A stretch of DNA of 64,000 nt from an uncultured Planctomycetota bacterium (GCA_963827935.1 CAWHCN010000011.1:433183-497182), one strand, 5' to 3'; counted from the stretch's first letter, positions 1 to 30,876 are shown. The notes: generated by a model not told the origin, from the sequence alone. Program-made: numbers and translations.

Positions 1-281
1 TGCGTCCGAGCCATCAACGCAAAAACTCCGGCGGGAAACCGCCTCCGCGCCGTGTCGGAAACCTCACCGCGAAGGCTGAAGTCGTGGTTGCCCCAAACAC
101 CGACCGCATTGGCGTCGAGCAGCAGCGCCGCGACTTCCGCAGCTCCTTCAGACCGGGCAAACGCATCGACGGTATCACCGATTGTGACAACACGATCAAC
201 GCGGCGCTGACGGAAAAGGGAAAGAGCGCGGGCCAACTCGGCCGGGTGGCTGTGAACATCGGTAACCAATCCCAGTCGCAC
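1..281 (-). CDS. metallophosphoesterase (calcineurin-like), N-terminal part; gene continues past the window start
   Basis: Reverse-complement translation of 1-281 gives ...GLVTDVHSHPAELARALSLFRQRRVDRVVTIGDTVDAFARSEGAAEVAALLLDANAVGVWGNHDFSL. It shows the D-x-H, GD-x-x-D and GNHD phosphoesterase motifs. A GTG start is preceded by an AGGAGG Shine-Dalgarno. The ORF is not in the track because there is no stop inside the window. Confidence 0.55.
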   Translation of the reverse strand, partial: MRLGLVTDVHSHPAELARALSLFRQRRVDRVVTIGDTVDAFARSEGAAEVAALLLDANAVGVWGNHDFSLRGEVSDTARRRFPAGVFALMART

Positions 282-283
282 GC

Positions 284-580
284 CTAACCTCCTCCGCCGT
301 CTATGAAGTTGACAGTCAAGCCCCAACAGGCATCTTTTCCACTTCGTCCCGGCCGGCGCGGACCATCCACGCGGCCGGCCTCGTAGCAGGTACACACCGG
401 GGCCTCGGCGGGCAGTCCGAAGCGGGCCTTGGCCTTGGCGATCTCCTCCTGCAGTTTGGCCAGGCTGTGCGCCGGCATCGAGCGGATGCGCGGCTTCTCG
501 GCGGCTTCGGTCGCGAAGCCCAGCAGCCACTTGTCCTGGCCCAGTTCGAGGGCGACATACAGCGTCGTGGTAGTAGTCAT
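284..580 (-). pseudogene. IS110-family transposase N-terminal remnant (about 70 aa of the DEDD domain, then truncated)
   Basis: LYVALELGQDKWLLGFA...APVCTCYEAGRVDG resembles the IS110 N-terminal domain (VGIDVSK...vvmEATGrY). The remaining ~270 aa of a full transposase are absent. Confidence 0.45.
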
Positions 581-796
581 GAATCGGTCTCCGTAATCAG
601 GTTAAGGGTGTCCTACCTGATGGAGACTTGTACCACCTCCGATACCGCGCTGCCTACATGGTATCGAACGACCCGGCTCAGCAGCCGGCTCACGCGGGAA
701 GAGACGCAATGTCTCGACTAACCTTCATTCGCGTGGCCGGTCGGCTGCAGCGCCTGGCTCGGCGCGTTCGCCATGTCGCGGGGTAAGACAACCATG

Positions 797-1144
797 CTAT
801 GCATGTTCAAAGTGTCGCCCCAACCTGACGGCAGTGATCAGCACGACAACAGTCCATACCACTGCCATAATAAACACTGGCCCCGTGACCAAAATGATCA
901 ATCCACCTGTTGATCCCGACGGATGCTGGTACTCCGCTCGGGTAGCGAGAGCCGCGAGTATTCCCTCTAACACCAAACCCAGTGCGCCTGCAACAAGCAG
1001 CAGTTGGGCGGCCCGAAGCGCTACACCAGAGCGTGTAAACAGCAGGCAGCCAGCTAGTGGCCTTGGCACGAAATAATGCAAGAAATTCCAGCTGCAGCTG
1101 CTACCCTGGGAATGGAGGCCCATCAGGTGTAGGAGGCTGCCCAT
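797..1144 (-). CDS. hypothetical small membrane protein
   Basis: 115-aa ORF with two hydrophobic helices (LLLVAGALGLVLEGILAALAT and LIILVTGPVFIMAVVWTVVVLITAV). Local GC is lower than background. Confidence 0.3.
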   Translation of the reverse strand: MGSLLHLMGLHSQGSSCSWNFLHYFVPRPLAGCLLFTRSGVALRAAQLLLVAGALGLVLEGILAALATRAEYQHPSGSTGGLIILVTGPVFIMAVVWTVVVLITAVRLGRHFEHA

Positions 1145-1806
1145 GCGTGGTCGAAGGCCTCGCCCTTTGACGCTCGATTCCGATGATGTCGCTATCCTCC
1201 AGTGGCTTGCGCGCTGCCGCTCGCAACCTTGGTTCCAGATTCAACATGCTCGCATCCTCCTGGGGATCGCCGCTGGCAGGCGCGTCAAGACCCTGGCCAG
1301 CGAGTTGCAATGCGACGCGGCCACGGTCTGGCGGGTCTGCCGTGGCTACGAACAGCACGGCCTCGATGTCGTGCTGTGGGAGGCCCCCCGGCCGGGTCGC
1401 CCGCCGCAGCTTTCCCCCCTGCAACGCGCTCAGATCGTGCAGTTGGCTTGTCTGCAACCCATCGCCAAAGGGTTGGAACGTCACGCACTGGAGCAGCGCC
1501 GACTTGGCGCGACAAGCCATCAGCGATGGCATCGTCAAGACCGTCAGTCCGCGTGCGGTGCGACAGATCTTGCATGGCGTCGATCTGCAGCCACACCGCA
1601 CCCGATACTGGAAGACGAGTCGCCTCGACGCGGAGTTCAAGGAACGGGCCGAACGGGTGCTGTGGTGCTACGGAAATGCCGAGCGTTTGGCCGCGCGTGG
1701 GCTCTGGGGCGTTTGCGTCGATGAGATGCCCAACCTGCAGATTCTGGAGCGGCAGCCGATCCGGCGCGCGCGGCCTGGCTGCATCGAACATCAGGAGTTT
1801 GGGTAG
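1143..1806 (+). pseudogene. IS630-family transposase remnant: N-terminal HTH plus the start of the DDE domain, internally frameshifted (~1480) and cut at 1800 by another insertion
   Basis: Frame 1143: ILQWLARCRS...ILLGIAAGRRVKTLASELQCDAATVWRVCRGYEQHGLDVVLWEAPRPGRPP. Frame 1183: KGWNVTHWSSADLARQAISDGIVKTVSPRAVRQILHG...LWGVCVDEMPNLQILER. The second frame is colinear with the intact IS630 transposase at 29520-30850 (VSVDEATSLQAIER). Confidence 0.6.
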
Positions 1807-1813
1807 TGGGCGA

Positions 1814-2086
1814 TTAGTGTGTTGACGCGGATCGCTCGCGATGGCGGCGAAGCCCCTCTTCGAGGGCAAGGAACAGATCAGCCTTCGCTGCGCGAGGAGA
1901 AACAAAAGACCCGTTCGAGTTCGCATAGGTGCCATCGTCGGCGTCGTCCATCCGCCAGCGATAAGCCCCGTTGCTGCCCGTAACTTCGAGAGTCATCTTC
2001 TCCATGACGCATCGGCCGGTGTCGCCTTGCCAGAAAGGGGCCGCAAGGATCAGTTCTAGCCGACGAATGTTCTGTTCGGCGTTCAT
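1814..2086 (-). CDS. DUF1508 (YegP-like) small protein, passenger of the insertion element
   Basis: LEVTGSNGAYRWRMDDADDGTYANSNGSFVSPRAAKADLFLALEEG resembles the YegP/UPF0339 repeat (dG.yrFrLka.NGe...SegY.sk). Confidence 0.35.
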   Translation of the reverse strand: MNAEQNIRRLELILAAPFWQGDTGRCVMEKMTLEVTGSNGAYRWRMDDADDGTYANSNGSFVSPRAAKADLFLALEEGLRRHRERSASTH

Positions 2087-2557
2087 GTCAAAGCTCCCTG
2101 TTCATGCGTGGCCGCTCCTGGGTGGCAGACCTAGATGGCCATTTCACAAGTTCCTGAGCAGCTTTTCAGCCGTAAGTCGTTGGCCTGTAACGTCCGAAGC
2201 TGCTCATGGATTTACGAAACGGTCATCTAGCCCTGATCCGGTTCGTCCTTGATGAACAAGCCCGCCAGTTCCGCCCAGCTCATTCGCCTGGACAGTTTGC
2301 CGTTGTTTGGCCACCAGCGTATCCCGCCGACGCTGACGATCATGGTGCCGAGCTTGCGCTCTTTCTTTCCCATTTGTCCCAGACATCAAATTGAATCCCG
2401 GCCCTCCCGAGCCAGATTGGTTCCTGGATGCTCGCCTTCACGTACTTGGTAGGCCGACCCTTCTGTCTGCCTCGCATGACGACTCCTCGTTGAGTGATGT
2501 CGGGGTGATGCGTGACCGCTCTTGCTATTCTACGCGCGGCGAAGGATAATACCCAGC

Positions 2558-2824
2558 ATGGCCAAGAAACCCCGCAAGCCGAAGACCCCTGACCCGGCAT
2601 CCTTCGCATTCGGCGTGCTCCAGCACGTCATCGAGGCTACGGGCGACACGCCGGCCGAGCCCCCGGCCCCGCCGGCGGATGTCGGCAAGGACCCTGCCGC
2701 CGTCGCCCTGGGGCGCAAGGGCGGGTTGAAGGGTGGGCCGGCCAGGGCGAAAAAGCTCGGCAAGAAGAAACTCCGCGAGGCGGCCAAGAAGGCTGCGGCG
2801 GCCCGTTGGGGCAAAGCCGAATGA
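2558..2824 (+). CDS. small basic protein with a GRKGG...KGG...AAARWGK C-terminal motif
   Basis: MAKKPRKPKTP...ALGRKGGLKGGPARAKKLGKKKLREAAKKAAAARWGKAE. This is a KGG-like basic tail seen on small mobile-element or stress proteins. An antisense ORF overlaps it. Confidence 0.3.
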   Translation: MAKKPRKPKTPDPASFAFGVLQHVIEATGDTPAEPPAPPADVGKDPAAVALGRKGGLKGGPARAKKLGKKKLREAAKKAAAARWGKAE

Positions 2825-2829
2825 ACTCA

Positions 2830-3198
2830 CTAGATCAGGTCTTGCTCATCGAGCACTTTTCGACATTCTTCGGGTAGTCGGTGACTATTCTGCAAAGCCC
2901 CGACGCGGAGCTTCTTCAGTAAAGTGGCAGAGCATGGCTTATGAGGCTTCAGCAGCTTCGCTTTGCGTAGAGTTTCGAGAGCGGCCAAGGATGTAACTCT
3001 TGCTCGCTCGTATGGCACATATGTCTTATGGCCAACGAAAGGGTGCTCGCCCTTTTCTACAATACAACCTGCCTTGTCGCCAACCGTGTGTGTCGTAAAA
3101 TTTACGATAACGACATTATCTGAATCTATATTCGTTTCAGATATGATGATCCACAGATGATGGTACATGCCATCAATAAATGTGTCGCCAGGGTTCAT
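2830..3198 (-). CDS. putative toxin partner of the Panacea antitoxin, with a loosely MazF/PemK-like pattern
   Basis: 122-aa ORF. Its start overlaps the upstream Panacea gene stop by 4 nt. GDTFIDG...HLWIIISE...VVIVNFTT...ERARVTSLAALETL loosely fits the PemK/MazF pattern (GD.v.vdf..pvlVlS..vvvvPiTs..dqirtid.rL). The region is AT-richer than background. Confidence 0.35.
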   Translation of the reverse strand: MNPGDTFIDGMYHHLWIIISETNIDSDNVVIVNFTTHTVGDKAGCIVEKGEHPFVGHKTYVPYERARVTSLAALETLRKAKLLKPHKPCSATLLKKLRVGALQNSHRLPEECRKVLDEQDLI

Positions 3199-3762
3199 TT
3201 CTTCCTTGCAAATAGCTTGTCAAAATAGGCTTTTTCTTGAGCATCTTGAAGAATGGCGTCTTTGTCCTTCAATCGGCCAACCGCCTCAATCAGATGCTCA
3301 AAGGGAATGGCAGTTGACGTACCTTTATGGTAGTTTTTCTCCCATTCCTCGAAGTGAGTTTCCCGAGCGATGTCAAAGTCGTCTTGTCCAAGACGCGCGG
3401 CCGACACCTCGTTCAGCAAGCTGACTTCCTGGCGGGATAGGGCGGAAGGGCTGAGGTCAGTAACAAGACTAATGAGATAGTCTTCATTCTGGAAATGGCG
3501 GGACCATTCAGCTTGGTCCGAGTGAGAAGCCCTTTATGAGATCGTATACCTCGCTGTGAATTGGACCGTAGTCCATCGCGCACAAGCGACCGCCGACAAT
3601 TGGCCGACCCCTCCTCTTGAGACTTTCGCGGTCCGCAATGTAAAGAAGGGCCAATAGCCGTTTCCGGCCCATGATTCGATGGGGGGCGAGCCGCAACAGT
3701 GTTGCCGCTGCTTCAATCGCCTTTCGCGTGTCGATGCGGAAAATCATGGCGGTGCTCCTCAA
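3195..3762 (-). CDS. Panacea-domain (DUF4065) antitoxin-like protein PanA, apparent +/-1 frameshift near 3515
   Basis: N-terminal frame: KRLLALLYIADRESLKRRGRPIVGGRLCAMDYGPIHSEVYDLIKG matches the Panacea/SocA/GepA core (KLqKLLYfa....g.pl...f.AwahGPV.pevY). The C-terminal frame continues SHSDQAEWSRHFQNEDYLISLVTDLSPSALSRQEVSLLNEV.... The two frames overlap at 3511-3533. Confidence 0.55.
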
Positions 3763-3935
3763 TCGGTTAGACGGCCCGAAACGTCTAAAGGTTCAGAGCG
3801 GTCACGTCTCCTAGCGGCGATCACCGTGCGCATTCTCCGGCTTTCTACGAAAAAATCCAGCGAATTGTTCTTGCCATGCGTGAGCGGTCACGTATAATAA
3901 GTATGTGGTGTTGATCGTTACCGGGAGCAACTCAG

Positions 3936-4925
3936 ATGCAATGCCCGACCTGCCAGAACGAAGCCCGCAAGTTCGGCCGCGACCGAGCCGGCAACCAGCG
4001 CTACCAGTGCCAGGCGTGCCGCAAGACGTTCTCTGACCGCCCGGTCCGGCCCCTGGGCGAAATGCGCCTGCCGCTCGACAAGGCACTGCCCTGCCTCCAG
4101 CTCCTGACAGAAGGCAACAGCATCCGGGCCACGGTGCGGATCAGCGGCGTGGCGAAAGACACCGTGATTGCCCTTCTGGTCGCGGTCGGGGAGAAGGGCG
4201 AGGCGTTGCTGCGGGAGAGCTTGCGGGGCGTTCCCGCACGGGACGTGCAGCTCGATGAAATCTGGGGATTCATCGGCATGAAGGAGAAGACGAAGACCCG
4301 GAAGGCGCTGGAGACATCGGACATTGGCGATGCGTATTGTTTCGTCGCCATCGAACGGACGACGAAACTGGTTCTCGCGTGGTATCTCGGCAAGCGGGAT
4401 CAGGGCAGCACGCGGATATTCCTTGAGGACGTGGAGCGCTCCACGCGCGGTCGGGTTCAGTTGAGCACGGACGGCTTGAAGTGCTACCCGTCGGCCGTTC
4501 AACTGGCCTTCTCGGAATGGGAGGTTGACCACGGCACGTTGGTCAAGGAGTACGCGACGAAGGCGGATGAGCACCGCTATTCGCCTGGTGAAGTCATTGA
4601 GACTATCAAGGGGGTTTGCTGTGGCAACCCCGACCCGGCAAAGATTTGCACGCGCCACGTCGAACGGCATAACCTGTCGATGCGGATGCAGAACCGGCGC
4701 CTGACCCGGTTGACGAACGCGTTCAGCAAGAAGTGGCAGAACCATGAGGCCGCGCTTGGCCTGTACTTCGCCGTGTACAATTACGTCCGGCCGCACGGTA
4801 CACTTACGCATGACGCAGAGGATCGGCGGAAGACGACCCCGGCGATGGCTGCCGGGTTGACCGATCATCCCTGGACCTTAGTGGAGCTGCTCCAGGCGGC
4901 GGCCAGTGCGGCGTCAACACACTAA
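3936..4925 (+). CDS. IS1595/IS1-like family transposase
   Basis: N-terminal Zn-ribbon CPTCQNEARKFGRD...YQCQACRKTF. DDE region DEIWGFIGMKEK...DGLKCYPSAV. C-terminal ERHNLSMRMQNRRLTRLTNAFSKKWQNHEAALGLYFAVYNYVRPH is typical of IS1595/IS1 transposases. Confidence 0.75.
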   Translation: MQCPTCQNEARKFGRDRAGNQRYQCQACRKTFSDRPVRPLGEMRLPLDKALPCLQLLTEGNSIRATVRISGVAKDTVIALLVAVGEKGEALLRESLRGVPARDVQLDEIWGFIGMKEKTKTRKALETSDIGDAYCFVAIERTTKLVLAWYLGKRDQGSTRIFLEDVERSTRGRVQLSTDGLKCYPSAVQLAFSEWEVDHGTLVKEYATKADEHRYSPGEVIETIKGVCCGNPDPAKICTRHVERHNLSMRMQNRRLTRLTNAFSKKWQNHEAALGLYFAVYNYVRPHGTLTHDAEDRRKTTPAMAAGLTDHPWTLVELLQAAASAASTH

Positions 4926-5057
4926 TCGCCCACTACCCGATTTTTTTGGTTTCTCCGGCCAATGCGTGCAGCGGGACCTTCGGACAGTGGTTCAGCCTGA
5001 GCGGCCAGCACGCTTTGCTCAAACTGATCCTTTATCGCCAGCGCGTGTCTGCACGCG

Positions 5058-5157
5058 CGGAATTATATGCGACCTGGCGCCTGGCGCTGAAATGTGAAGG
5101 CGCATGTCCTGATTTGACAAGGGATTGCGACTCGCGCGCCAGGTCGCATATAATTCC
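5058..5157. repeat. perfect 23-24-bp inverted repeat (GGAATTATATGCGACCTGGCGC ... GCGCCAGGTCGCATATAATTCC) with a ~50-bp spacer
   Basis: Read directly in the sequence. The AT-rich arms contrast with the flanks. It may be an insertion-sequence or MITE end remnant, or a strong hairpin. Confidence 0.6.
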
Positions 5158-5663
5158 CGGCGAATTCAGTACGACATGGCAATTTCCAGGGAACCGGCAG
5201 CGCCTTCCGTCTCCTCGAACCGGTTCGCGAGGCGGCGAAGCATTCCGGCGAGTAGGCGGGGGTTGGCAGGCCAGCCCTGCGGGAGCTTCTTGGTTCCCGT
5301 GAGCCCAGCGGTGTCGGTGAGGCGTGCGAGAAGGTCGCGGACGATGCCTTCCCATGTCCCGCCCTTGTCATGTAACGGTTGGCGGAGGGGCGGCGCGATG
5401 GCCGAGGTGTCGAGGAAGGCCGTTGCTGGGTGAGGTACGATGAGGCGTCATTGACATTTCTCCCCAGAGCGGTCGGGGGAACGCGTGGTCCGGTGAGGTA
5501 CAATCCCGCGAGGGTTCTTTTGCGGGGCCGTTGGCCATGCAGTGCCGCGCCAGTTCCTTGACGATGCTCCGGGGGATGTATGGGCTGCGCCCCAGCCTGG
5601 GGCTGAGCGGGGCGGCAAAGTGACCTGATCGACCGCGGGCGACGTTAGTCGAGGTCGGCGGCG

Positions 5664-5888
5664 TTACTTCTTGCCATTGAGCCAGTCCTCGATTTCCCAG
5701 GCCCTGAAGCGGATCGTGCCGCGCCGGCCAGGGCTCAGCTTAAGCGGCCCCGGGAACCGCCCCGCGGACACGGCGCGTTCGATAGTACGGCGGGTGAGCT
5801 GAACCAGTTCGCAAACGTCAGCCATCGAGAGGAGCTTGTCGATCCGTCCTTGACGCGGAGCTACGGCGGTTTTCGGTGCGGCGAGCAT
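5664..5888 (-). CDS. alpA: AlpA/Xis-family excisionase-type HTH regulator
   Basis: LLSMADVCELVQLTRRTIERAVSAGRFPGPLKLSPGRRGTIRFRAWEIEDWLNGKK is a typical AlpA/HTH_17 prophage regulator sequence. Confidence 0.7.
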   Translation of the reverse strand: MLAAPKTAVAPRQGRIDKLLSMADVCELVQLTRRTIERAVSAGRFPGPLKLSPGRRGTIRFRAWEIEDWLNGKK

Positions 5889-6241
5889 GGCCTGCCTCGG
5901 TTTGTTCTGGGCGAGGATGCCTGTGTCGGCTTGCGGCGTATCACGACGCACCCAAGTCTAACCGGCGAAGGACGGAGAGTTGAGGGGACTAGGCGGACAG
6001 CAGCGATCTTTTGAGTGCCGGCCGGCGGCGTCTATGGACCTTGTCGAGAAGGTTGGACTATAACGGAGTGTTTGTGTAGCGTTAACGGCCCAGCGCCACC
6101 CCCAGCGCTACACCGCGATGACCGGAATGTGTCGGATTGAGTCGTAATGTGTCGTGTGTTTTGTGGGTCGCAACCCATTGCCGTAACAGAGGTTGTCGCA
6201 TCCGGACGCATAACATCGGCATGTGTTGCATAGGGGACAAT

Positions 6242-6287
6242 TCGGATTGCAAATCCGCCATCCCCGGTTCGCATCCGGGAAGGGCCT
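6242..6287 (+). other. tRNA-Cys(GCA) 3'-half remnant (anticodon arm, T-arm, 3' acceptor strand) with no pairing 5' half; putative integrative-element att site
   Basis: CGGATTGCAAATCCG is identical to the E. coli tRNA-Cys anticodon arm. The loop is TTGCAAA (U33, GCA anticodon, A37). The T-arm is CCCGG-TTCGCAT-CCGGG. The following AAGGGCC has no complementary 5' strand upstream. Confidence 0.5.
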
Positions 6288-6499
6288 CTTTCCTCTCAGC
6301 CCGTCTCACGGGGCCGCAAACCCTGTCATCTCCTGCCACCTGACCACCCTGCCACGCGTGGACCAACGCGCGCGAAATGACGACAACTCAGGCCCGGCTC
6401 GGTAAGAAAGACGCTTGAACAGAACCGCCCTCCCTGACCCTGTGGATGGTTCATGGGGGCTTTCCATCGTAACCCATCGGATTGCGAGCGGCACCTGCC

Positions 6500-8602
6500 A
6501 TGCGATGCACCTCTTCCTTGTCCCTGACCCTGTGCTTCCTGCTGCCCGGCCTGGCCGGCGCGGCCCCGCGGGATGGCGCGACCCTGGAACACCTTCTCGG
6601 AGCGCCGTTTCCCACGGCCCTGACGGCGTCACCCGCGGGAGGCCATGTCGCCTGGGTGGCCAACGACCGTGGTCGGCGGAACGTCTGGGTGGCGGAGGCA
6701 CCCGACTACAGAAGTCGCGCCCTCACCAGCTATACCAAGGACGACGGACAGGACCTGGCCGATCTCGCCTGGACAGCGGACGGCCAGAGTGTCTGTTATG
6801 TCCGGGGGAGTCTGGGCCACGATGGCGACCCGTTCAATCCGCGCAGCCGCCCGCGCACACCGGAGCAGGCGGTCTGGATCGTCGCCCGCTCCGGCGGTGC
6901 GCCGCGCCGGCTCGGCGCTGGACACGCCCCAGCCGCCGCGCCCCGGGGCGATCGCGTCGCCTGGCTGCACAAGGGCCAGGTCTGGGCCGCCCCGGTCGGC
7001 GGGCGAGCCGAGGCGGCGCAGCTCTTCCAGGTCCACGGGCAGGTTCAGCAGCTCCGCTGGTCGCCCGACGGCACAACCCTGGCGTTTGTCTCTGACCGTG
7101 GCGATCACAGCTTCATTGGCGTCTATCGGGGATCGGAGCAGCCTATCCTTTGGCTCGATCCGAGCGTGGACCGCGACAGCGAGCCGGCCTGGTCGCCCGA
7201 CGGTCGGCAGATCGCCTTCCTGCGCAGGCCGACCTCGCGCGAGCCGTTCACCTTTGGCCCGCAGCCGACGGCCGAGCCGTGGTCCCTCCGCGTGGCGGCG
7301 GTCGCCGACGGCAAGGGCCAGCAAGTCTGGAAAGCCGATCCCGGAGTCGGCAGCGCCTTTCGCGGCGTCGAGGCGACCAACCAGATCTTCTGGGGGGCCG
7401 ACGACCGCCTCGTCTTCCCCTGGGAGGCCGACGGCTGGACCCACCTCTACGCGGTTGCCGCGACGGGCGGCAAGGCGACCCTGCTCACCCCCGGCAAGTT
7501 CGAGGTGGAAGCGGTAAGCCTGAGCCCGGATCGCCGCCGCCTTGTTTACAGCTCCAACCAGGGCGACATCGATCGCCGACACATCTGGACTGTCCCCGTC
7601 CGCGACGGCGAGCCGGAGCCGCTGATGAAAAGCGTCGGCATCGAGTGGTCGCCCGTGATGACCAGCGACGGCAAGGCGATCGCCTTTCTCCGTTCCGATG
7701 CCCGCCGCCCGGCCCGGCCGGCCATCCGCGTTGGGACGGCGGCCGTCCGCGACCTGGCCGCGATTCCGTCGGACTTCCCCGCCGACCAGCTGGTGATTCC
7801 GTCGCGGGTGACGATCACGGCCGTGGACGGGAAGAAGGCGCCGGGGCAACTCTTTCTGCCGCCCGGCTTGAAGCCCGGCGAACGCCGCCCCGCCATCCTT
7901 TACACGCACGGCGGGTCGCGCCGCCAAATGCTCCTGGGCTGGCACATGATGGCCGGCTACACCAATCACTATGCCCTCAACCAGTACCTGGCCCTGCACG
8001 GCTTCGTCGTGCTGTCGCTCAACTACCGCAGCGGCATCGGCTATGGCCTCGATTTCCGCGAGGCGCCTGGTTACGGCGCCCACGGGGCCAGCGAGTTCAA
8101 CGACCTGCTCGGTGCCGCCCGTTACCTCAAGGACCGCCCGGACGTGGATGCCGGCCGAATCGGTCTCTGGGGTGGGTCCTACGGCGGCTATCTGACCGGG
8201 CTCGGCCTGTCTCGCGCCTCCGACGTGTTTGCCGCCGGTGTCGACATCCACGGTGTCTACGACTGGAACGTGGTCATCCGCAACTTCGAGCCCGGCTACG
8301 ATCCCCTGGCCCGCCGCGAAACGGCCCGCCTGGCCTTCGAGTCATCGCCGGCCGCCTCGATCAAGTCGTGGCGGTCCCCGGTCCTGGTCATCCACGGTGA
8401 GCACGATCCCGACGTGCCCTTTTCCGAGAGCGTACACCTGGTGGAAGACCTGCGGAAGCAGAAGGTGGAGGTGGAGCAGTTGATCTTCCCGGAGGAAGCC
8501 CACGGCTTCCTGACGCACGAGGCGTGGCTGCGCTGCTTGACGGCGACCGCGGAATTCCTCGAGCGCCACCTGGGCAGTCCTGGCCGGAAGGCGATGCCCT
8601 GA
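6500..8602 (+). CDS. S9-family serine peptidase (prolyl oligopeptidase/acylaminoacyl-peptidase type) with an N-terminal beta-propeller and signal peptide
   Basis: Signal peptide MRCTSSLSLTLCFLLPGLAGAAP. WD/TolB-like repeats (WSPDG...). Catalytic GGSYGGY serine motif and a C-terminal His/Asp region (IHGEHDPDVP). Confidence 0.85.
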   Translation: MRCTSSLSLTLCFLLPGLAGAAPRDGATLEHLLGAPFPTALTASPAGGHVAWVANDRGRRNVWVAEAPDYRSRALTSYTKDDGQDLADLAWTADGQSVCYVRGSLGHDGDPFNPRSRPRTPEQAVWIVARSGGAPRRLGAGHAPAAAPRGDRVAWLHKGQVWAAPVGGRAEAAQLFQVHGQVQQLRWSPDGTTLAFVSDRGDHSFIGVYRGSEQPILWLDPSVDRDSEPAWSPDGRQIAFLRRPTSREPFTFGPQPTAEPWSLRVAAVADGKGQQVWKADPGVGSAFRGVEATNQIFWGADDRLVFPWEADGWTHLYAVAATGGKATLLTPGKFEVEAVSLSPDRRRLVYSSNQGDIDRRHIWTVPVRDGEPEPLMKSVGIEWSPVMTSDGKAIAFLRSDARRPARPAIRVGTAAVRDLAAIPSDFPADQLVIPSRVTITAVDGKKAPGQLFLPPGLKPGERRPAILYTHGGSRRQMLLGWHMMAGYTNHYALNQYLALHGFVVLSLNYRSGIGYGLDFREAPGYGAHGASEFNDLLGAARYLKDRPDVDAGRIGLWGGSYGGYLTGLGLSRASDVFAAGVDIHGVYDWNVVIRNFEPGYDPLARRETARLAFESSPAASIKSWRSPVLVIHGEHDPDVPFSESVHLVEDLRKQKVEVEQLIFPEEAHGFLTHEAWLRCLTATAEFLERHLGSPGRKAMP

Positions 8603-29427: not shown

Positions 29428-30876
29428 AGCTAGTGCCACACCGCGGAAACGGCGTAGCACGAAAACTGGACATGGCGTATCTTGCCTGGTCCCTCGATTG
29501 TGAGGCGGGAGATCGACCTATGCCAGGGAAGGCCGCGAAGATCATCGTCAGCGAAAGGCAGCAGGTTCTGCTGCAGGAATTCAGCAAGTCGCGTACGGTC
29601 GCCAAGTGCGTGGTGCAGCGGGCGACGATCATTTTGCTGGGATTCGCCGGCCTGCTGAACGAGGAGATCGCCTCGCGGGTCGGCCTCAACCGACTGCAGG
29701 TGGGCCTCTGGCGGCAGCGCTGGCGGGACGCGTGGGATTCGCTGTGCGTGTGGGAATGTACCGAACCGCACCGTCTGCGTGAGGCGATCGTCAACGTCCT
29801 CTCCGACGCCCCGCGACCGGGTGCCCCGGCGACGTTTACCGCCTTTCAGGTGTCCCAGATCGTGGCCTTGGCGTGCGAACCGCCGAAGTTGTCGGGCCGG
29901 CCGATCGACCACTGGACGCTCCGGGAACTGCGTGACGAGGCGATCACGCGGCAGATCGTGGAGGATATTTCCGTGTCTCAGGTTGGCCGCTTCCTGCAGC
30001 AGGCCGCCGTGCAGCCGCACCGCAAGAAAATGTGGCTCAACACCACGGAGAAGGACCCCCAGAAGTTCCAGGCCGAGGTCGAAAATGTTTGCCGAACCTA
30101 CCTCGAGGCGCCGGCGAAGGCGGGCGCTGGCACGCACACGGTGAGCGTGGACGAGGCGACCTCGCTGCAGGCCATCGAGCGGAACGCCCCCGACAAGCCG
30201 GCCCAACCCAACAGCGTACCGAAGCAGGAATTCGAATACACCCGGCACGGGACGACGACGCTGACCGCCGGTCTGGACGTGGTGACGGGGATGATCGTCT
30301 GCCCAACGCTGGAGGCGACCCGTACCGAAGCGGAGTTCGTCGCGCACATCACCCGCACCGTGGACACCGACCCCGCCGCCGAATGGCTCTTCGTGGTCGA
30401 CTGCCTCAACACGCACATGTCGGAAAGCCTGGTGAAGTTCGTCGCCGAACGCTGCGGCCTGCCCGAAGAGCTGGGAAAAAAAACGACAGCGGCATCCTCG
30501 CATCGATGGCTACGCGGAAGGAGTTCCTGTCGGACGCCGCCCACCGGATCCGCTTCGTCTACCTCCCGAAGCACAGTTCGTGGCTTAACCAGATCGAGAT
30601 CGTGTTCGGGATCATCCACCGGAAGCTGCTGCGGTGCGGAAACTTCACGTCGGTGACGGACCTGGAAGCGCAGTTGCGAGAATTCATGGACTACTACAAC
30701 GCTACGATGGCCCACCCCTTCGCCTGGACTTACACCGGCAAGCCGGTGCAGAAGCAACGCCGCGCGAGCTTCGTCGCACCGCACCGCCGCCTCAAACTGG
30801 GGAAAATCCAGCGACTGGCGGAAGCCGCTGCCTTATGCAATGATGCTTGAGAGATGCGGCACTAGCTGACATGATC
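29428..30876. mobile_element. IS630-family insertion sequence (boundaries approximate; 11-bp terminal inverted repeat CAGCTAGTGCC / GGCACTAGCTG)
   Basis: The inverted 11-mers at 29428-29438 and 30866-30876 bracket the transposase gene. The element sits inside a DUF3800 ORF. Confidence 0.5.
29520..30850 (+). CDS. IS630-family transposase, frameshift inside an A8 homopolymer near 30477-30484
   Basis: HTH: IIVSERQQVLLQEFSKSRTVAKCVVQRATIILLGFAGLLNEEIASRVGL. DDE region: TVSVDEATSLQAIER...WLFVVDCLNTHMSESL, then after GGGAAAAAAAACG the +1 frame gives ...FVYLPKHSSWLNQIEIVFGIIHRKLL...YYNATMAHPFAWTY. Confidence 0.8.

Follow-up and report, generated by a model that had tools for sequence, protein, structure and literature searches.

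What lies between two perfect inverted repeats in a 64,000-nt stretch of DNA from an uncultured Planctomycetota bacterium (GCA_963827935.1, CAWHCN010000011.1:433183-497182; the whole stretch is referred to here as the window), and do the genes between them move as one unit? A reading made from the sequence alone (the sequence-only reading) had described an IS1595/IS1-like insertion sequence (IS) with four passenger genes, nested inside an IS630 transposase gene. We consider it very likely that positions 1802-4937 form a 3136-bp transporter IS of the IS1 family with a toxin-antitoxin cargo, the antitoxin gene of which is now broken. The repeat GGGTAGTGGGCGATTAGTGTGTTGACGC occurs exactly twice in the window, in inverted orientation, at 1801-1828 (+ strand) and 4911-4938 (− strand). 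The two arms are complementary at 28 of 28 positions, and no chance match to the repeat arose in 100 shuffles of the window, where none is expected. The proposal that exact inverted repeats bound an IS-type element therefore stands, with the right arm six nucleotides from the 4917-4944 first assigned to it.

We fixed the functional termini from the 8-bp target duplications of related elements and from the relative L048, a 2688-bp Logan contig found in three samples that starts and ends exactly at GGTAGTG and CACTACC. By these marks, the left terminal inverted repeat (IRL; 1801-1828, + strand) has its functional terminus GGTAGTG beginning at 1802, and the right one (IRR; 4911-4938, − strand) ends at 4937 in CACTACC; counted from these true termini, the inverted repeats are 27-28 nt long and perfect. 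The copies in relatives, whose ends the sequence-only reading had singled out for comparison, carry the same GGTAGTG...CACTACC termini. IRR holds the stop codon of the transposase gene (TAA, 4923-4925), just as had been read, and the remark that the cargo sits in an AT-richer segment is borne out by a GC content of 43-52% over 2850-3450, compared with 60-66% around it and 65.8% for the whole window. At the family's true termini we sought a target duplication around the window copy and found none: the flanks, GGAGTTTG and CGATTTTT, match at 5 of 8 positions, in agreement with the earlier observation that no clean 8-bp duplication is visible. A segment at 2870-2892 that resembles a degenerate IRL (78% match) was rejected, as the similarity is at chance level and falls inside the conserved toxin open reading frame (ORF). 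The inverted repeat motif had no copy in the viral contigs.

The transposase is encoded by a single 329-aa ORF at 3936-4925 (+ strand) with an N-terminal CxxC...CxxC zinc finger and a DDE catalytic domain. It matches Pfam DDE_Tnp_IS1 (PF03400) with 36.5 bits (gathering cut-off 24.1), NCBIfam transpos_IS1 (NF033558) at 4.8e-25 and the zinc-binding domain common to IS1 and IS1595 (NF050000) with 36.3 bits (cut-off 28). In tblastn searches of plasmids it aligned with E. coli IS1B at ~25% identity across 93-97% of the protein (E 5e-10), and with genes annotated as 'IS1 family transposase' in Alphaproteobacteria at 35-42% identity. The protein database holds at least 6953 homologues, one of them identical and the next best at 86%, and a scan of the genome collection recovered only distant relatives (43-54% identity). 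The window protein retains 93 of the 95 positions conserved in at least 97% of 109 other full-length homologues, among them the four zinc-finger cysteines (C3, C6, C25 and C28, conserved across 110 homologues) and D107, D179 and E243. Its reading frame is uninterrupted, as in 110 homologues of 310-345 aa, and the classical insA/insB' two-ORF frameshift arrangement is absent from the window element. Because this arrangement is lacking and the NF033558 score of 88.7 bits lies below the equivalog cut-off of 100, we assign the element on sequence grounds to a divergent single-ORF subgroup of the IS1 family. IS1-family terminal inverted repeats are about 20-30 nt long and start with GGnnnTG, a pattern that the GGTAGTG ends fit, and the family's target-site duplications measure 8-9 bp. 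ISfinder's IS1 subgroups include single-ORF and ISMhu11-type elements, with members of up to ~4.6 kb that carry passenger genes in one subgroup.

Movement of such units is recorded in the relatives, which we gathered by exact-protein look-up, by metagenome and genome scans, and from plasmids (~18 elements examined). Perfect 8-bp target duplications enclose whole cargo-bearing units in at least ten of them, from 1.95 to 4.7 kb: L010 (3510 bp, GAAAACTG), L017 (4683 bp, GACAAGCA), L030 (3112 bp, TGCCCGGA), L005 (1950 bp, TTAAGACG), L050 (3320 bp, TCGTTTCC), L053 (3550 bp, CGAAATCG), L054 (3013 bp, TAATTTTG), L056, which is the element of L054 at a second site (3013 bp, TGATTTTG), L025 (2561 bp, CAGCTCTT) and L058, on an Acidiphilium multivorum plasmid (2634 bp, AAGCCGAG). 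Since perfect 8-bp duplications surround these long units, the relatives evidently transpose as whole units, extra genes included. L010 and L011 share the same transposase and cargo and differ in their right flanks; L052, L047 and L057, like the window copy, are without target duplications. L055 joins the left flank of L054 to the right flank of L056, either through recombination between copies or as an assembly chimera. A compact relative of ~1 kb was found nowhere among the ~18 elements, so that cargo, which had been called uncommon in elements of this kind, is apparently the rule in this clade. The clade itself was found in metagenome contigs, its only named members being planctomycete metagenome-assembled genomes (Fimbriiglobus, Gemmataceae); other phyla, and plasmids too, harbour more distant relatives. 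Two of these, distant IS1-like elements with 35-40% identity, reside on isolate plasmids, have GGTAGTG ends and carry extra genes: L058 (2261-4894, A. multivorum JZ-6 plasmid) adjoins a RES-Xre toxin-antitoxin pair, and L057 (1863-4987, Methylocapsa polymorpha pRX1), with a PD-Lambda-2_B-like gene, adjoins a Shedu gene.

A comparison of the window element with nine relatives revealed recurrent blocks, each present in most of the nine: the inverted repeats, 2500-2818, and 3878-4937, which spans the transposase promoter, the transposase gene and IRR. The stretches in between, 1829-2500 and 2819-3877, are variable. The layout of the clade, as deduced from these alignments, appears to run from IRL through a short variable region, a small basic protein gene with its own promoter and a variable cargo slot, and then to a conserved promoter, a copy of the inner repeat motif and the single-ORF zinc-finger DDE transposase gene, whose stop codon lies in IRR. 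The basic protein gene (2558-2824, + strand, 88 aa) is oriented as the transposase gene and follows a promoter-like site found by consensus scan (TTGCTA-17-GATAAT, 2522-2550, + strand); the DNA block around it, 2500-2818, is conserved in seven of the nine relatives. Its product is 37-84% identical to counterparts in 10 related elements, with the invariant motif KDPAAVALGRKGG.KGG.ARA...KKAA.ARW, and it found no match in Pfam, the Protein Data Bank (PDB) or plasmids; its last 35 aa show similarity to the start of phrog_2384. The sequence-only reading had counted this gene as KGG-like cargo. None of 11 family members matches any Pfam model, KGG included, at E<=1, and the gene behaves, by its distribution, as a lineage-specific core accessory gene and not as cargo.

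Between the antitoxin and transposase genes lies a divergent control region (3748-3935). On its antitoxin side are a ribosome-binding site and, at 3767-3788, the palindrome TTAGACG-N8-CGTCTAA; on its transposase side is a promoter, TTGCCA-16-TATAAT (3871-3898), that agrees with the consensus at 11 of 12 positions. About 20 nt before the transposase ATG, at 3908-3914, GTGTTGA forms a third copy of the inner repeat motif (TGTGTTGATG-like), which we regard as a putative transposase-binding operator; the −10 box and the TGTGTTGATG motif are kept upstream of the transposase gene in six relatives. A match to ATTGTGTTGATG had suggested that L014 was a compact ~1-kb IS, a candidate that we rejected: the motif is a conserved internal site upstream of every transposase gene.

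Could the family assignment, or the unity of the element, be mistaken? The sequence-only reading left IS1595 and IS1 side by side, and its IS1 half is the one that we retain. Membership in the IS1595 family would agree with the N-terminal zinc-binding model NF050000, which both families share, and with 8-bp duplications, which are typical of IS1595 elements too. The catalytic domain, however, matches IS1 only, with PF03400 above its cut-off and NF033558 at 4.8e-25; the IS1595 catalytic models (Pfam DDE_Tnp_IS1595 and NCBIfam transpos_IS1595) gave no match to the transposase at E<=0.01, similarity to E. coli IS1B is direct across 93% of the length in tblastn, and the ends follow the IS1 GGnnnTG pattern, which together make an IS1595 identity highly improbable. 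Scarcely more credible is an accidental composite, in which a compact ~1-kb IS1-like element (about 3880-4937) and a stray solo repeat at 1801 would enclose host DNA. The partial inner motif GTGTTGA lies just upstream of the transposase gene, where the left end of a compact IS would be, and to that extent fits a composite; but it has no GGTAGTG and stands downstream of the conserved −10 box, so that it is operator-like and not end-like. Every sufficiently sequenced relative also contains additional genes in the interval from IRL to the transposase gene, the basic protein gene near IRL is kept clade-wide, and in ten relatives the duplications enclose the whole long unit. We therefore retain a single IS1-family unit with passenger genes.

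In the window copy, the slot is occupied by what appears to be a type II toxin-antitoxin operon. The antitoxin gene (3195-3747, − strand) belongs to the Panacea (SocA/PanA) family and is broken by a 1-nt insertion, an extra T at 3527/3528 as judged against L047 and L045; intact homologues have 183 aa. Its N-terminal fragment matches Panacea PF13274 at 6.9e-12, improving to 4.6e-16 after removal of one base (model positions 4-112/113), and, once repaired, the protein shares 82.6% identity with its intact L047 counterpart. Overlapping it by 4 nt is the candidate toxin gene (PanT; 2830-3198, − strand), whose 122-aa product had no match in Pfam (E<=5), NCBIfam or PADLOC; PADLOC likewise has no model that matches the intact L047 antitoxin. 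Structure prediction gave this protein a MazF/Kid/CcdB-type fold with an SH3-like barrel, at 6-16% sequence identity to the top 11 solved structures (MazF/Kid/CcdB). Homologues lie directly downstream of a Panacea gene, with the same 4-nt overlap, in L045, L046, L047 and L048, in otherwise unrelated contexts. The family numbers 3492 cluster representatives at E<=1e-3 and includes the phage family phrog_19071, and the window protein keeps every invariant and nearly invariant family residue. We propose it as a candidate cognate toxin with a predicted MazF/Kid/CcdB fold. The earlier claim of a Panacea antitoxin-like gene with a toxin-like neighbour is supported, by PF13274 and conserved synteny, with the correction that the antitoxin gene is frameshifted; of the four passengers once listed, genes unrelated to transposition are indeed present, and the variable cargo comprises the toxin-antitoxin pair only.

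The same three accessory genes recur, in the same order, in the 2688-bp element of L047/L048, whose transposase is 57% identical to that of the window. The L047 antitoxin is intact and 83% identical to the window protein, the L047/L048 toxin 65% and the small basic protein 59%. Between the window and L047, every gene is saturated at its third codon positions (35-55% identity), while the 188-bp control region (3748-3935 vs 4264-4452 in L047) retains 83% DNA identity against the 35-55% of neighbouring third positions, and the toxin shows nucleotide identities of 72/84/35% at codon positions 1/2/3, a pattern of purifying selection. Because of these contrasts, the association of the toxin-antitoxin pair with the basic protein gene and the element is evidently old and selectively maintained. 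The higher identity of the antitoxin (83%) than of the transposase (57%) had raised a recent exchange of cargo between window and L047 as a candidate, rejected in view of the saturated third positions, which indicate constraint and not recency. GC content at third positions (GC3) of the toxin gene is low in both hosts, 49% in the window (2830-3198) and 52% in L047 (5001-5369), the transposase genes having 81% and 67%; selection for low expression, or a foreign origin, might account for the difference.

How might such an element work? With the zinc finger and helix-turn-helix at its N-terminal end, the transposase would bind the repeats that contain GTGTTGA; it would cut at the GG termini, and it probably acts at the third, internal site to repress transcription from its own promoter. 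The toxin-antitoxin operon in the slot is oriented divergently from the transposase gene, and the pair is likely to penalise loss of the element (addiction), to protect the host in the manner of abortive infection, or to do both; either effect would repay carriage of the element.

The flanks bear on the history of this copy. Directly abutting the left end is a truncated IS630-family transposase gene (1143-1800, + strand), which encodes the N-terminal ~206 of ~385 residues in two frames split near 1450. NCBIfam transpos_IS630 matches both frames, Pfam recognises HTH_32 and HTH_29, and a full-length Nostoc IS630 transposase (385 aa) aligned by tblastn through residues 1-206 only, at 1143-1740. 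The last residues of the IS630-like ORF are ...CIEHQEFG, and its stop codon falls within the left arm, which confirms the interruption noticed earlier at this junction. The remainder of the gene does not resume on the other side: in the tblastn search nothing near 4939-6000 aligned with residues 207-385, three-frame translation of 4939-5700 gave no IS630 continuation, and the 3' 45% is thus absent from the right flank. A second IS630-family element at 29529-30736 (+ strand) is also split over two frames, which may be a two-ORF arrangement as in annotated Nostoc relatives. It was tried as the source of the missing half and rejected, as it has no DNA similarity to the 1143-1800 fragment. Because the 3' part of the IS630 gene is missing and no target duplication is present, we favour a deletion or recombination after insertion. 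In the most economical history, the element would have inserted into, or beside, the IS630, and an IS1-type adjacent deletion, or recombination between two copies, would then have replaced one flank.

The description of the element as nested inside an IS630 gene accordingly gives way to truncation at the left junction. A clean insertion into an intact IS630, with both halves still flanking the element, would explain why the IS630-like ORF reaches the left terminus and stops in IRL; we regard it as very improbable, given that neither translation of 4939-5700 nor tblastn detects IS630 homology to the right and that the 8-bp flanks agree at only five positions, compared with perfect duplications in ten relatives. 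That the toxin-antitoxin cargo is a decaying remnant which no longer functions, with a real frameshift and a silenced or inactive toxin, is a proposition to which we assign even chances. The single-base insertion in the antitoxin gene is not in a long homopolymer, the copy has no target duplication, and it lies among the remains of other mobile-element genes (a fragment of IS630 and an AlpA-like gene, for which the first 8 kb show no integrase), all of which suit decay. The toxin's retention of all invariant and nearly invariant residues, the perfect inverted repeats and the full-length transposase ORF speak against it, and the extra T could still be an assembly error.

Several points weigh against our own reading of 1802-4937 as a transporter IS with toxin-antitoxin cargo. 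As the sole copy in the window, and one that lacks a target duplication, the element offers no proof of its own mobility. The NF033558 score below the equivalog cut-off marks a divergent subgroup, and two substitutions at near-invariant positions of the transposase, C88G and S240R (the latter beside H241/E243), could impair the enzyme. What we infer about the role of the basic protein and an autoregulatory role of the internal motif stays at that level, and the toxin has no match to Pfam PemK (PF02452), its activity being suggested by the fold only. Finally, a frameshifted antitoxin next to an intact-looking toxin is hard to reconcile with an active toxin; the pairing would make sense if the assembly were wrong at the frameshift, if the toxin were silent, or if a different antitoxin worked in trans. 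The same frameshift makes it doubtful that the window copy has an active addiction module. The present activity of the copy as a whole is uncertain, since perfect inverted repeats and a full-length transposase stand against a broken antitoxin and two unusual substitutions.

The slot of other elements holds different genes. HTH-peptidase M78 proteins matching PD-Lambda-2_B, each with a small partner, occupy it in L010 (1.6e-42) and in L057 on Methylocapsa pRX1 (4.1e-40), and an RmrA-like protein with a small partner in L053 (1.5e-34). Fic is found in L015 and L052, PemK/MazF with a 257-aa partner in L020, PDC-M24A/B with a P63C protein in L017, and GmrSD/HEC-06 in L030 (5.8e-145). The cargo of L050, L054, L007/L005, L025 and L058 gave no family beyond weak matches (DUF5343, PDC-M34A, SWIM_XIII). 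Recognisable toxin-antitoxin or defence-type cargo is thus present in about 10 of the ~18 elements, a small, non-random sample with no background control. Separately, a cargo protein of 174-197 aa is shared by L007 (7140-7733) and L005 (2413-2937; blastp 5e-10), the transposases of which are distantly related, and is a candidate further cargo family. We put forward, tentatively and as somewhat less probable than its opposite, that these elements form an undescribed IS1-family clade of minimal carriers of toxin-antitoxin and anti-phage modules, a small-scale analogue of defence-carrying Tn7-like transposons. Each would combine one transposase and a dedicated, conserved small basic protein with a strongly constrained divergent control region and one exchangeable slot, whose contents would be swapped through recombination between the conserved stretches on either side. 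One swappable slot in a fixed layout may be new as a family-wide pattern; we found no description of the lineage-wide layout in the searchable literature, a search that did not extend to the IS reference catalogue, and its novelty is uncertain.

Comparison with known systems sets out what is shared and what is not. The window element has the catalytic domain of an IS1 DDE transposase together with an N-terminal zinc finger, GGnnnTG repeats of ~25-28 nt, a stop codon in IRR and, in its relatives, 8-bp duplications, all as in the IS1 family. Unlike E. coli IS1, to which its transposase is only ~25% identical, it has one long ORF in place of the frameshift join of InsA and InsB', measures 3.1 kb and not 0.77 kb, carries an extra basic protein gene and a variable cargo slot, and has its transposase promoter internally and not in IRL. 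An IS with passenger genes corresponds to the transporter IS (tIS), a concept given in passages of PMC3129680 and PMC7986276 that credit Siguier et al. 2009. As in a tIS, genes other than those for transposition lie between IS-type ends and the unit would be mobilised by a single IS-type transposase; in the window copy the genes lie between the ends, and unit movement is evidenced, for the relatives, by their duplications. The difference is that here cargo appears to be the rule and is mostly of toxin-antitoxin or defence type.

Toxin-antitoxin operons beside transposition genes are known from Tn3-family transposons, where a type II operon is a proposed stabiliser (Lima-Mendez et al. 2020, PMC7157771). 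Here too the operon adjoins the transposition gene and its promoter and is not a distal passenger; the window element differs in its IS1-type DDE transposase, its lack of a resolvase or res site, its much smaller size and its antitoxin family, and the Tn3 analysis involved no PanAT pairs (PMC8832971). Kurata et al. (2022, PMC8832971) showed that a Panacea antitoxin can partner toxins of many kinds; the MazF/PemK-like PanT toxins examined experimentally there inhibit translation, and PanATs, which often adjoin transposase genes, are suggested to be possible addiction modules. The window pair resembles them in joining a Panacea/DUF4065 antitoxin to a toxin unrelated in sequence; it differs in its demonstrable position between the terminal repeats that delimit a transposable unit, in its recurrence in the divergent element L047/L048, in the frameshift of its antitoxin, and in a toxin family for which there is no Pfam model. 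Tn7-like transposons carry defence systems (Benler et al. 2021, PMC8649781), and a transposon family with cargo rich in defence and toxin-antitoxin genes is what the clade shares with them, whereas Tn7-like elements are large, multi-gene and equipped with target selectors, and those of the clade are 2-4.7 kb long, with a single transposase and one small module.

Taken alone, the window copy is an ordinary, partly decayed mobile element, and the value of the locus lies in its relatives, in which an IS1-type lineage appears to move toxin-antitoxin and defence-type genes as 2-4.7-kb units of fixed architecture with a conserved accessory protein. Should the pattern hold in a systematic survey, few autonomous vehicles known to spread defence modules would be smaller than these elements, the unassigned proteins of the slot (for example those of 247, 248 and 197 aa) would be candidate new defence or toxin genes, and a functional context would emerge for the 122-aa MazF-fold family, which numbers thousands of members and lacks a Pfam model.

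Of the remaining features inside the element, a 90-aa ORF (1814-2086, − strand) reads outwards through IRL. The sequence-only reading had called it DUF1508-like, a label for which neither Pfam nor a moderate-confidence structure model (YegP) offers support. It is an orphan, its sole database match being itself; ORFs in the corresponding place in the two closest cargo-bearing relatives show weak similarity to it, and it may be a fast-evolving small gene. This ORF and the transposase both end in ...ASTH*, through same-frame outward reading of the identical repeats (1814-1828 and 4911-4925). Between it and a 48-aa ORF, in the left variable part, lies a long imperfect hairpin of 110 nt with 39-nt arms (2126-2235; RNA fold −54.7 kcal/mol, z −5.7), which has no second copy in the window and no counterpart in any of the fetched loci.

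Outside the element, the ORFs to its right (4946-5503) and to the left of the IS630 fragment had no Pfam match, and a search of 1-8000 for tRNA and Rfam families found none, a tRNA-like stretch near 6215-6290 being unsupported by ARAGORN and Rfam. The region has the appearance of a degraded mobile-element patch, with an AlpA/excisionase-like HTH_17 gene (5664-5951, − strand) immediately to the right of the element. The right flank also holds a 27-nt inverted repeat (5054-5080/5136-5162), 93% complementary with its arms 55 nt apart, that contains TATAAT-like sequence.

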